This document shows, piece by piece, positions 7,157 through 34,079 of a DNA stretch of 46,538 nucleotides. Numbering within the stretch: position 1 is the stretch's first letter; every line of letters begins with the position of its first letter. The notes under the pieces are model-generated. The model was not told where the DNA came from. It did no database searches and saw only the letters and a list, made by a program, of their open reading frames with translations. The DNA comes from a virus (taxonomy: Duplodnaviria; Heunggongvirae; Uroviricota; Caudoviricetes), in the IMG/VR virus record IMGVR_UViG_2879754190_000005; one strand, given 5' to 3'. The position numbers and the translations under genes were made by a program.

Positions 7157-7494
7157 GAAGGAAACAAAACAGAAACAGCAATTGCCGTTACCTGTTGTTA
7201 CCATGGCAAGTAAACGTATCTCAGGCGAGCGCATTGCGCCGTTCTGACGCAGATAAATTAGCCTGGATAGAAGGTGCTGGCAATAAAAAATAGCGTTTTC
7301 TTATCGGTATCGGTAAGATTGCTGCGGGTGCTTGAGGCTGTCTGCCTCGGGCATGCCACTGTAAGGCAGACAGAGAAAAGCCCCAGTTAACATTACGCGT
7401 CCTGCAAGACGCTTAACATTAATCTGAGGCCCAATCTATGTCTCACAAATGTAGGTTAGCCTCTTACGTGCCGAAAGGCAAGGAGAAGCAGGCT

Positions 7495-7650
7495 ATGAAG
7501 CAGCAAAAGGCGATGTTAATCGCCCTGATCGTCATCTGTTTAACCGTCATAGTGACGGCACTGGTAACGAGGAAAGACCTCTGCGAGGTACGAATCCGAA
7601 CCGGCCAGACGGAGGTCGCTGTCTTCACAGCTTACGAACCTGAGGAGTAA
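7495..7650 (+). CDS. hokD: Hok/Gef family small membrane toxin
   Basis: MKQQKAMLIALIVICLTVIVTALVTRKDLCEVRIRTGQTEVAVFTAYEPEE (51 aa) matches the Hok/Gef toxin family (RelF/HokD type) as I recall it; long structured leader upstream. Confidence 0.8.
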   Translation: MKQQKAMLIALIVICLTVIVTALVTRKDLCEVRIRTGQTEVAVFTAYEPEE

Positions 7651-7717
7651 GAGACCAGGCGGGGGAGAAATCCCTCGCCACCTCTCATGTGTCAGGCATC
7701 CTCAACGCACCCGCACT

Positions 7718-7742
7718 AAACCCGCTTCGGCGGGTTTTTTGT
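7718..7742 (+). terminator. Rho-independent terminator downstream of hok-like gene
   Basis: AAACCCGC TTCG GCGGGTTTTTT hairpin plus T run. Confidence 0.6.
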
Positions 7743-7886
7743 TGCGTGCTGAATACGCAGGGTGAAAAATAACCATATATTTGATTATATACACAACAAA
7801 AAATAAAAGTCATTGTACTTGCACATTAAACAATCAAATATACGGCGTGAAATAAATATTTATCAGATTAATATTTTTGTCTCTAT

Positions 7887-8138
7887 GTGGATATAACCGT
7901 TTGTACTTATAAACCTGGGGGCATCGTGGAAAAAATAAAGAAACTATTTAGTAGCAAATACGCAGTCATACGTCGTGATGACCTGTCAGTTATAGTCGAA
8001 ATGGATTACTTCCCTGAAACCCCAAAATCAATAATGTATCGTAATGGTCGAAAGGCAATTTTTTTACCGATGAGGGTAAGTGACATTATGGGAAATGATA
8101 AACTGCTGGATGAATTGCGAGTCAGAGCATCCTGTTAG
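7887..8138 (+). CDS. Hypothetical small protein (83 aa) in AT-rich context
   Basis: ORF preceded by a very AT-rich upstream region; its TAG stop lies inside the 9-bp IS1 target duplication, so the ORF is intact. Confidence 0.4.
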   Translation: MDITVCTYKPGGIVEKIKKLFSSKYAVIRRDDLSVIVEMDYFPETPKSIMYRNGRKAIFLPMRVSDIMGNDKLLDELRVRASC

Positions 8139-8140
8139 TA

Positions 8141-8908
8141 GGTAATGACTCCAACTTACTGATAGTGTTTTATGTTCAGATAATGCCCGATGACCTTGTC
8201 ATGCAGCTCCACCGATTTTGAGAACGACAGTGACTTCCGTCCCAGCCTTGCCAGATGTTGTCTCAGATTCAGATTATGTCGCTCAATGCGCTGAGTGTAA
8301 CGCTTGCTGATAACGTGCAGCTTTCCCTTCAGGCGTGATTCATACAGCGGCCAGCCATCCGTCATCCATACCACGACCTCAAAGGCCGACAGCAGGCTCA
8401 GAAGACGCTCCAGTGTGGCCAGAGTGCGTTCACCGAAGACGTGCGCCACAACCGTCCTCCGTATCCTGTCATACGCGTAAAACAGCCAGCGCTGACGTGA
8501 TTTAGCACCGACGTAGCCCCAATGTTCGTCCATTTCAGCGCAGACAATCACATCACTGCCCGGTTGTATGCGCGAGGTTACCGACTGCGGCCTGAGTTTT
8601 TTAAGTGACGTAAAACCGTGTTGAGGCCAACGCCCATAATGCGTGCACTGGCGCGACATCCGACGCCATTCATGGCCATATCAATGATTTTCTGGTGCGT
8701 ACCGGGCTGAGAGGCGGTGTAAGTGAACTGTAGTTGCCATGTTTTACGGCAATGAGAGCAGAGATAGCGCTGATGTCCGGCAGTGCTTTTGCCGTTACGC
8801 ACCACGCCTTCAGTAGCGGAGCAGGAAGGACATCTGATGGAAATGGAAGCCACGCAAGCACCTTAAAATCACCATCATACACTAAATCAGTAAGTTGGCA
8901 GCATTACC
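8141..8908 (-). mobile_element. IS1 copy 1 (768 bp) with 9-bp target duplication CTGTTAGTA
   Basis: InsA 8578-8853 and InsB 8156-8659 ORFs; termini GGTAATGACTCC... and ...GGCAGCATTACC; CTGTTAGTA at 8132-8140 and 8909-8917. Confidence 0.92.
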
Positions 8909-8986
8909 CTGTTAGTATTGGCATTAATTCTGGTATACTACATAACGGGCTGAACACCCATTCTACTGCGCCAGCGGAGAACTACG

Positions 8987-9586
8987 ATGGCGCATATACA
9001 ACTGGTCAAACAAACCTCTTCCGGATTACTTCTCCCGGCGACGCCGGAGAGTTGCGATTTTTTGCATCAAATCAAAATAGGTGAGTGGATACACGCAGAC
9101 TTTAAGCGTGTGCGTAACTACGCATTCCACAAGCGTTTTTTCAAACTCCTGCAACTGGGATTTGATTACTGGACTCCGGTCGGTGGGGCGATCACGCCTC
9201 GCGAACGAAAACTGGTATCAGGCTTCGTTGATTACCTGTGCGAATCAGTAGGTCGGGAACACACTCCAGCCCTGAGTGATGCCGCAGAGCAATACCTTAA
9301 TACAGTTGCGACATGCAGAACCCGGGATACGGCATTGCTAAAGTCGTTTGACGCTTTCCGCGAGTGGGTAACCATTCAGGCCGGATTTTACACCGAGCAT
9401 ATTTATCCTGATGGTAGTCGTGGGCGCAGGGCAAAATCTATCGCATTTGCGAACATGGACGAAACCGAGTTTCAGCAGGTTTATAAATCTGTACTGAATG
9501 TGCTGTGGAACTGGATCCTGTTCCGTAAATTTTCCTCTCCGGAGGAAGTCGAAAATGTGGCCGCGCAGTTACTGGAGTTTGCGTAA
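8987..9586 (+). CDS. DUF1367-type lambdoid phage protein (YbcN-like)
   Basis: 199-aa ORF with GGAG RBS; position and sequence character typical of a nin-region gene upstream of Q; family assignment from memory. Confidence 0.55.
   Translation: MAHIQLVKQTSSGLLLPATPESCDFLHQIKIGEWIHADFKRVRNYAFHKRFFKLLQLGFDYWTPVGGAITPRERKLVSGFVDYLCESVGREHTPALSDAAEQYLNTVATCRTRDTALLKSFDAFREWVTIQAGFYTEHIYPDGSRGRRAKSIAFANMDETEFQQVYKSVLNVLWNWILFRKFSSPEEVENVAAQLLEFA

Positions 9587-10319: not shown

Positions 10320-10322
<3 letters not shown>
9873..10322 (+). pseudogene. Q-like late-gene antiterminator, C-terminus replaced by IS911 terminus
   Basis: MIYPTNTGKSGEHLRLTTLESVWIQGKLRMWGRWSY...; its TGA stop is the first 3 nt of the IS911 end. 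Joining the IS911 flanks restores about 33 more codons ending in TGA. Confidence 0.5.
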
Positions 10323-11565
<1,243 letters not shown>

Positions 11566-18525: not shown

Positions 18526-19293
18526 GGTAATGCTGCCAACTTACTGATTTAGTGTATGATGGTGATTTTAAGGTGCTTGCGTGGCTTCCATTTCCATCAG
18601 ATGTCCTTCCTGCTCCGCTACTGAAGGCGTGGTGCGTAACGGCAAAAGCACTGCCGGACATCAGCGCTATCTCTGCTCTCATTGCCGTAAAACATGGCAA
18701 CTACAGTTCACTTACACCGCCTCTCAGCCCGGTACGCACCAGAAAATCATTGATATGGCCATGAATGGCGTCGGATGTCGCGCCAGTGCACGCATTATGG
18801 GCGTTGGCCTCAACACGGTTTTACGTCACTTAAAAAACTCAGGCCGCAGTCGGTAACCTCGCGCATACAACCGGGCAGTGATGTGATTGTCTGCGCTGAA
18901 ATGGACGAACATTGGGGCTACGTCGGTGCTAAATCACGTCAGCGCTGGCTGTTTTACGCGTATGACAGGATACGGAGGACGGTTGTGGCGCACGTCTTCG
19001 GTGAACGCACTCTGGCCACACTGGAGCGTCTTCTGAGCCTGCTGTCGGCCTTTGAGGTCGTGGTATGGATGACGGATGGCTGGCCGCTGTATGAATCACG
19101 CCTGAAGGGAAAGCTGCACGTTATCAGCAAGCGTTACACTCAGCGCATTGAGCGACATAATCTGAATCTGAGACAACATCTGGCAAGGCTGGTACGGAAG
19201 TCACTGTCGTTCTCAAAATCGGTGGAGCTGCATGACAAGGTCATCGGGCATTATCTGAACATAAAACACTATCAGTAAGTTGGAGTCATTACC
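18526..19293 (+). mobile_element. IS1 copy 2 (no target duplication; abuts IS600 interior)
   Basis: 768 bp, InsA 18581-18856, InsB 18775-19278; left flank is the Rha-like stump, right flank is IS600 internal sequence. Confidence 0.92.
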
Positions 19294-20216
19294 CAGGAGT
19301 CGCTGAAAAATACGCGTTAATCGAACAATGGCGACAACAATTTCCCATTGAAGCGATGTGTCAGGTATTTGGTGTATCCAGGAGCGGTTATTACAACTGG
19401 GTACAGCATGAACCCTCAGACAGAAAACAAAGTGATGAGCGGCTAAAACCGGAGATTAAGGTGGCACATATCCGCACTCGCGAAACATATGGAACCCGGC
19501 GGCTCCAGACGGAGCTGGCAGAGAATGGCATCATCGTTGGTCGTGACCGACTGGCACGTCTTCGTAAGGAGCTGAGGCTACGCTGTAAGCAGAAACGCAA
19601 GTTCAGAGCGACTACGAACCCGAACCACAATCTGCCAGTTGCGCCAAATCTGCTGAACCAGACGTTCGCTCCTACAGCACCAAATCAGGTCTGGGTGGCG
19701 GACCTGACGTATGTTGCCACACAGGAGGGATGGTTGTACCTCGCTGGCATCAAAGATGTTTATACGTGTGAAATTGTCGGCTACGCCATGGAGAGCGCAT
19801 GACAAAAGAGCTGACAGGTAAAGCCCTGTTTATGGCGCTCAGGAGCCAGCGCCCACCTGCCGGGCTAATCCACCACTCTGATCGAGGTTCACAGTACTGC
19901 GCATACGATTACCGGGTCATACAGGAGCAGTCTGGTCTGAAAACATCAATGTCGCGTAAAGGTAACTGTTACGACAACGCTCCGATGGAAAGCTTCTGGG
20001 GAACGCTGAAAAATGAGAGCCTGAGCCACTATCGTTTTAATAACCGGGATGAAGCCATCTCAGTAATACGGGAATACATTGAGATTTTCTACAATCGTCA
20101 GCGTCGTCACTCTCGTCTGGGGAATATCTCCCCGGCAGCCTTCAGGGAAAAATATCATCAGATGACTGCTTAAAAAAAGAACAAATGGTAGTGTCCGCTA
20201 TTGCCAGTACACCTCA
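19294..20216 (+). mobile_element. IS600 3' fragment (orfB region only)
   Basis: Begins inside IS600 at ...CAGGAGTCGCTGAAAAATACGCG and ends at the IS600 right terminus ...CAGTACACCTCA (20216); orfB split 19356-19802 / 19799-20173. Confidence 0.9.
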
Positions 20217-27717: not shown

Positions 27718-28485
27718 GGTAATGCTGCCAACTTACTGATTTAGTGTATGATGGTGATTTTAAGGTGCTTGCGTGGCTTCCATTTCCATCAGATGTCCTT
27801 CCTGCTCCGCTACTGAAGGCGTGGTGCGTAACGGCAAAAGCACTGCCGGACATCAGCGCTATCTCTGCTCTCATTGCCGTAAAACATGGCAACTACAGTT
27901 CACTTACACCGCCTCTCAGCCCGGTACGCACCAGAAAATCATTGATATGGCCATGAATGGCGTCGGATGTCGCGCCAGTGCACGCATTATGGGCGTTGGC
28001 CTCAACACGGTTTTACGTCACTTAAAAAACTCAGGCCGCAGTCGGTAACCTCGCGCATACAACCGGGCAGTGATGTGATTGTCTGCGCTGAAATGGACGA
28101 ACATTGGGGCTACGTCGGTGCTAAATCACGTCAGCGCTGGCTGTTTTACGCGTATGACAGGATACGGAGGACGGTTGTGGCGCACGTCTTCGGTGAACGC
28201 ACTCTGGCCACACTGGAGCGTCTTCTGAGCCTGCTGTCGGCCTTTGAGGTCGTGGTATGGATGACGGATGGCTGGCCGCTGTATGAATCACGCCTGAAGG
28301 GAAAGCTGCACGTTATCAGCAAGCGTTACACTCAGCGCATTGAGCGACATAATCTGAATCTGAGACAACATCTGGCAAGGCTGGTACGGAAGTCACTGTC
28401 GTTCTCAAAATCGGTGGAGCTGCATGACAAGGTCATCGGGCATTATCTGAACATAAAACACTATCAGTAAGTTGGAGTCATTACC
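27718..28485 (+). mobile_element. IS1 copy 3 (no target duplication)
   Basis: 768 bp; InsA 27773-28048, InsB 27967-28470; flanks AACGGGTCA and CACCGGAAC differ. Confidence 0.92.
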
Positions 28486-28873
28486 CACCGGAACTGATTT
28501 GATGAACTATCAACGCTCTTAAATTCCCGGCCTTTTTAATGTTACTGTTAGTAATCTCCCAGCCTTTCAATGTTTCCCGACATCGTTTTCCTCGAAACAT
28601 GAACCAGATGCGAATGTATTTACCTCGAATCTCGACACCTGTTGGTAATTTAGACATATCATGAGTCTTTGATAAACTGATTTATCTTCGGATAGTTGTA
28701 CCAGATAATCCCTCGCTTACTGTCTGGCTTCCCTAAAGGAGATACTCGTTTGAAGTGGAAGCCTTCCACCCAACAGTTCTGGCGGTATGCTTCAATTTGT
28801 CTGGCACCCAGACCAGTGCGAAGCATCAGGCTGAACCGCCCCGGGTTTCCTGGAGAGTGTTTTATCTGTGAAC

Positions 28874-31567: not shown

Positions 31568-34079
<2,512 letters not shown>

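Follow-up and report, generated by a model that had tools for sequence, protein, structure and literature searches.

In every Shigella species, IS1 outnumbers all other insertion sequences (ISs) (Hawkey et al. 2020, PMC7373316). Sharing of insertion sites is frequent within S. flexneri, since the expansion took place before diversification, and one third of the sites are common even to different S. flexneri lineages (PMC7373316). The ends of IS1 carry an outward -35 box, so that a hybrid promoter may be formed when a -10 box lies at the correct spacing, and IS1 insertions without optimal spacing failed to activate the neighbouring gene (PMC8764528). For these hybrid (fusion) promoters, PMC9330008 and PMC8764528 cite Prentki et al. 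(1986). The nin region of lambdoid prophages has the gene order hok/sok, small ORF, DUF1367/NinB-like gene, YbcO gene and DUF1133/Q-like gene.

The window, i.e. the whole stretch of DNA analysed, was the 46,538-nt virus record IMGVR_UViG_2879754190_000005. The locus studied belongs to a defective lambdoid prophage of Shigella flexneri, in which it forms the nin region (Table 1). It had the gene order given above, and its sequence identity was 96–99% both with prophages of E. coli and with a complete phage record, but it was interrupted by an IS1 element and also by an IS911-like element, the latter solely in this strain. The IS1 almost certainly arrived by simple transposition of a complete element into a 71-nt spacer between the phrog_1813 gene (the small ORF) and the DUF1367/NinB-like gene.

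Table 1. Positions of the IS1 insertion, its neighbouring genes and other features of the window
Feature	Position	Strand	Basis or remark
hok/sok type I toxin-antitoxin module	7326–7740		Rfam sok, 118 bits; Hok/Gef, 3e-23
Small phage ORF, 83 aa from GTG 7887	7887–8138	+	phrog_1813 match, phage homologues
Left target-site duplication copy, CTGTTAGTA	8132–8140	.	contains last sense codon TGT and stop TAG of the small ORF
IS1 element	8141–8908	-	768 bp; inverted repeats, Pfam/NCBIfam domains, similarity to known copies
IRR, insB-distal IS1 terminal inverted repeat	8141–8163	.	adjoins the small ORF
insB frame, 167 aa	8156–8659	-	PF03400 (DDE_Tnp_IS1), 1.1e-73; DDE catalytic part of InsAB'
insA, 91 aa	8578–8853	-	zinc ribbon PF03811, 5.9e-20; helix-turn-helix PF12759, 4.9e-30
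A6C motif AAAAAAC, -1 programmed frameshift, insA/insB overlap	8596–8602	-	intact
IRL, insA-proximal IS1 terminal inverted repeat	8886–8908	.	adjoins the DUF1367 gene
Right target-site duplication copy, CTGTTAGTA	8909–8917	.	sequence and repeat search
Extended -10-like TGnTATACT	8931–8939	+	48 nt upstream of the DUF1367 start; outside IS1
DUF1367 gene, intact	8987–9586	+	PF07105, 4.8e-98; phrog_319
IS3-family element, 1246 bp	10320–11565		ends TGAAGTGG...CCACTTCA; 3-bp duplication TTC
Two IS1 copies, mutually identical, same orientation	18526–19293, 27718–28485		no target-site duplication
ZnuA/ABC-3 (sit-like) transporter operon	~23.2–26.6 kb		between the two duplication-less IS1 copies
Truncated phage integrase	27078–27731		abuts IS1 copy 27718–28485
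IpaH-type gene, NEL E3 ligase and LRR_TTSS domains	41106–42821		domain search
Fourth IS1 copy	43309–44076		intact 9-bp duplication GGTTGAATG; ~490 bp from the IpaH-type gene
Further IS3-family copies/fragments	1–1219, 19294–20179, 31568–34042, 44788–46012		match L003 6772–8000; rve/HTH_21

The small ORF matched phrog_1813 of PHROGs (E 2.8e-34, residues 5–83), and homologues of 29–54% identity were found in Salmonella, Citrobacter, Klebsiella and Aeromonas phages, indicating that it is a real phage gene. It gave no family match in Pfam or NCBIfam and was recognised by PHROGs only. Its RefSeq counterpart in E. coli (WP_000411373.1) is 70 aa long and starts at GTG 7926. The DUF1367 protein was placed by PHROGs with NinB/Orf, and its gene is followed by YbcO and then by the DUF1133/Q-like gene. 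Upstream of the small ORF, a strong terminator (7718–7737) was detected in the hok/sok module. When Rfam families were searched around the insertion site, only sok (7326–7500) passed the threshold, with nothing at the insertion itself.

The IS1 was complete and exactly 768 bp long, and its transposase genes were encoded by the minus strand. A repeat finder gave imperfect terminal inverted repeats of 23 nt (87% complementary), and all eight ends of the four IS1 copies in the window started with GGTAATG (CATTACC at the other end). InsA matched Zn_ribbon_InsA and HTH_Tnp_IS1 of Pfam, and the insB frame matched NCBIfam NF033558 (transpos_IS1) with 146 bits against a cut-off of 100. The A6C motif occupied IS1 positions 307–313 and read TTA AAA AAC in the insA frame (context TTAAAAAACTC at 305–315); for the same IS1 copy in related loci (L004, L007 and L013), gene callers predicted a 232-aa fused transposase. 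Judged from its intact ORFs, frameshift site and ends, this complete copy is apparently functional. It was 99.6% identical to a copy annotated as IS1F and ~91% to the IS1 of phage P1, i.e. ~9% diverged from that IS1A-type element. The four copies in the window differed from one another by 0–2 bases, and the present copy by one base from every other copy. Every tested defining feature of IS1 was found in it. The likeness to the IS1 family (IS1F-like isoform) extended over length, inverted repeats, insA/insB, A6C, 9-bp duplication and AT-rich target, and the copy differed in nothing of substance from this isoform, which has expanded in Shigella.

A preliminary description of this DNA had reported an IS1 directly after a stop codon, with the stop inside a 9-bp duplication and the ORF preserved. 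All three statements, and the coordinates given with them, proved to be correct. A perfect 9-bp direct repeat, CTGTTAGTA, flanked the IS1: on the left side the sequence read GAGCATC, CTGTTAGTA and then the IS1 left end GGTAATGACTCC (longer stretch GGTAATGACTCCAACTTACTGAT), and on the right side the IS1 end GCATTACC (longer stretch ATCAGTAAGTTGGCAGCATTACC), CTGTTAGTA and then TTGGC (TTGGCATT). The TAG stop of the small ORF (8136–8138) lay within the left copy, the ORF end reading TGT TAG, and therefore the small ORF ended exactly as in uninterrupted loci; its C-terminus, ...RVRASC*, was identical in three uninterrupted loci (L001, L011 and L014) and in an occupied one (L003). The original 3' flank was indeed displaced, but the 768 bp reported must be raised to 777 bp to include the 9-bp duplication.

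The target region was AT-rich (26–42% GC). Three copies of CTGTTAGTA were counted in the window versus 0.19 expected by chance; the third, at 28545, lay 60 bp past another IS1 copy, was unrelated to the ends of that copy and was set aside as a chance match. A duplication of 10 nt, as given by the repeat finder, was rejected: C8908 is the conserved terminal base of IS1 (CATTACC) and happens to equal C8131, so the duplication is 9 bp. In the mechanism proposed, InsAB', made via a -1 frameshift at A6C, would cut CTGTTAGTA with a 9-bp stagger in the AT-rich stretch, and repair of the stagger would duplicate the 9 bp and so regenerate the flanks, among them the TGT-TAG with which the upstream gene ends, with neither coding sequence altered. 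The locus is a clean illustration of an IS landing on a stop codon and sparing the gene, since the target-site duplication regenerates both flanks.

Comparison with the uninterrupted locus, suggested earlier as a check, was performed with a rebuilt empty site, in which 7640–8140 was joined to 8918–9417 (1001 nt), against 5,426 complete E. coli genomes. The rebuilt site was contiguous from end to end, with 98–99% identity, in 170 of them, where it was annotated as hokD / hypothetical protein / DUF1367, and one complete 47.5-kb phage record (L014, PP818812.1) had the same uninterrupted arrangement. In one such locus (L001), 71 nt separated the stop of the 70-aa hypothetical protein from the DUF1367 start, and the target was present once, as the one-base variant ATGTTAGTA. 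In another (L011, E. coli 214-4), the sequence read GAGCATC-CTGTTAGTA-TTGGC with CTGTTAGTA exactly once, and the DUF1367 protein was identical to that of the window. These data bear on a different origin of the junctions, namely IS1–IS1 recombination or an IS1-mediated rearrangement that joined unrelated segments. Such events did take place nearby, as two IS1 copies in the window (flanks CTTAACGCG/CAGGAGTCG for 18526–19293 and AACGGGTCA/CACCGGAAC for 27718–28485) had no target duplication, which points to IS1-mediated deletion or recombination. At the present site, however, a rearrangement was refuted by the perfect 9-bp duplication and by flanks that were contiguous in the 170 E. coli genomes and the phage genome, and we give it next to no probability.

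Occupied sites were found in two ways. One genome of each species was scanned for exact matches, and the junction was detected in S. flexneri SFBU1023 as well as in a genome of 4.44 Mb that bears the label E. coli ECMA0423; a look-up of the DUF1367 protein added nine further assemblies of 4.4–4.7 Mb. The junctions were identical in 11 of 11 assemblies (L002–L010, L012 and L013), S. flexneri SFBU1023 included. The IS1 copy at these sites varied by 0–3 substitutions between assemblies, except for one masked copy and two with single-base indels, and in the occupied assemblies examined both the small ORF and the DUF1367 ORF were intact and did not differ. High-copy repeats such as IS1 are a classic source of misassembly, and the junction could be thought of as an artefact in which an assembler had misplaced a repeat copy. 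But the 11 genomes were assembled independently, 10 of them on contigs of 4.4–4.7 Mb, and the variation among their IS1 copies also speaks against an artefact, the probability of which we consider negligible.

The same junctions in the occupied assemblies, together with an uninterrupted site in E. coli, indicated a simple transposition that was inherited within a Shigella lineage, the occupied assemblies being assigned to Shigella by their size (4.4–4.7 Mb), by the two titled records L002 and L003 and by the window's ipaH gene. A single insertion was passed on by descent; it is fixed in a Shigella lineage and is not recent. Among the matches listed (up to 40 pieces per record, a number reached in 376 records), a 400-nt query across the left junction was covered to at least 80% by no genome of the 5,426 from E. 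coli. Thus, as all Shigella assemblies examined had the insertion and no E. coli genome among the matches listed did, it may be usable as a lineage marker. It resembled the IS expansion of Shigella (Hawkey et al. 2020, PMC7373316) in being common to all occupied assemblies seen. Given the dominance of IS1 and the shared sites in Shigella, an intergenic IS1 that has become fixed in a prophage remnant is no surprise. The event is already known in kind, one of hundreds of IS1 copies in Shigella genomes, and teaches nothing new about the biology of IS1 or the decay of Shigella genomes; its value lies mainly in correct annotation.

Two of the records retrieved had labels of interest. L002 (CP178302.1), labelled E. 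coli ECMA0423, contained the Shigella-type occupied site with 99.8% identity to the window and may be a Shigella or EIEC strain. L014 (PP818812.1) is named 'Actinobacillus phage vB_Apl-pPE4', a surprising host in view of its 98.5% identity to this E. coli/Shigella prophage region.

The small ORF and the DUF1367 gene were probably co-transcribed formerly. The DUF1367 start now lies 848 nt past the stop of the small ORF, versus 71 nt in the empty site, and in this arrangement the IS1 genes between the two would be antisense to both. The insertion had been supposed to displace any terminator, but a scan revealed no terminator-like site in the original 71-nt spacer, nor anywhere between 8909 and 8987, and the folding of the spacer was not better than that of shuffled sequences (z = -0.58), so no terminator has been displaced. 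A single stable hairpin in its fold (8967–8994) covered the ribosome-binding site and start codon of DUF1367 and had no T-run. Nor did the claim of an outward-reading IS1 end facing the DUF1367 gene hold: both insA and insB are minus-strand genes, and therefore transcription of IS1 runs away from DUF1367, towards the small ORF, while a promoter-like site in the DUF1367-side end reads inward (8901->8874, minus strand).

IRL, which contained part of this inward site, also contained an outward -35-like hexamer, TTGGCA (8895–8900, plus strand), with 5/6 matches to TTGACA and directed at DUF1367. An outward -35-like hexamer facing a downstream gene is shared with the hybrid promoters of Prentki et al. 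(1986), as these are described in the papers citing them (PMC8764528 and PMC9330008), and together with a -10 box in the flank it could in principle switch on DUF1367, YbcO and the Q-like gene. The geometry differed, however: the distance from TTGGCA was 12 nt to TAGTAT (8913–8918) and 33 nt to TATACT (8934–8939), versus the 16–18 nt needed, so no canonical hybrid promoter was formed. No plus-strand promoter was detected at the IS1/DUF1367 junction by a consensus scan or by a relaxed scan (spacers of 15–19 nt). As badly spaced IS1 insertions gave no activation of a neighbour (PMC8764528), a hybrid promoter at this junction is very unlikely.

The best promoter-like feature upstream of DUF1367 was the extended -10-like TGnTATACT, which was unchanged in empty and occupied sites and is, on its sequence, a candidate for the native promoter of DUF1367, untouched by IS1. 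IS1 is polar in either orientation, as found in the classical gal and lac studies. With such polarity, transcription from upstream prophage promoters would probably be attenuated before DUF1367, and efficient read-through into DUF1367, YbcO and the Q-like gene has probably been lost.

Attenuated transcription would hardly matter, because the prophage is a remnant. The insertion was most likely neutral, in a prophage full of IS elements and without late genes nearby. One might suppose instead that the position after the stop was selected, insertions that spared the phrog_1813 and DUF1367 genes being kept as useful to Shigella; this would agree with the two ORFs being intact and identical in the occupied assemblies examined, and with the small ORF belonging to a conserved phage family. 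But these facts are equally accounted for by neutral insertion between two genes of a prophage in decay, the Q-like gene nearby is broken in this strain, and of the more than 100 copies of IS1 in a Shigella genome (PMC7373316) some will adjoin stop codons by chance. We consider selection of the position improbable. Placement could also be non-neutral in that antisense read-through from phrog_1813 would damp the IS1 transposase, or that IS1 would insulate DUF1367-YbcO-Q, either effect being selected. Nothing in the data requires such a role, and we regard it as highly improbable.

Besides the four IS1 copies, the window contained IS3-family elements, the IS-cut DUF1133/Q-like gene, a sit-like ABC transporter and an IpaH-type E3 ligase gene. 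With several IS3-family copies and fragments, IS-derived DNA made up a large share of it, and the downstream region carried integrase fragments, IS copies, the sit-like transporter and ipaH instead of phage late genes. IpaH-type E3 ligases are a hallmark of Shigella/EIEC carried on prophage remnants, and the window matched Shigella loci at 99.8%, which indicates a source genome of the Shigella flexneri type. The DUF1133/Q-like gene was interrupted by the 1246-bp IS3-family element, which from its ends we take to be IS911-like. This element was absent from all related Shigella loci reaching that position (L002–L010, L012 and L013), indicating that it is newer and strain-specific.

Some minor features were seen on either side of the IS1. 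The 3' end of hok (7659–7740) gave a sub-threshold match to isrK (30.6 bits versus a gathering score of 50). The interval between the hok terminator and the small ORF (7750–7900) was very AT-rich (26–29% GC) and contained two minus-strand promoter-like sites facing hok (7813->7784, with 10/12 matches, and 7866->7837). At 8967–8994, a 7-bp GC-rich stem (TGCGCCA/TGGCGCA) enclosed the Shine-Dalgarno sequence GGAG and paired with the ATG of DUF1367; it was also present in the empty-site locus L001 and may be a translational control element of the DUF1367 gene.
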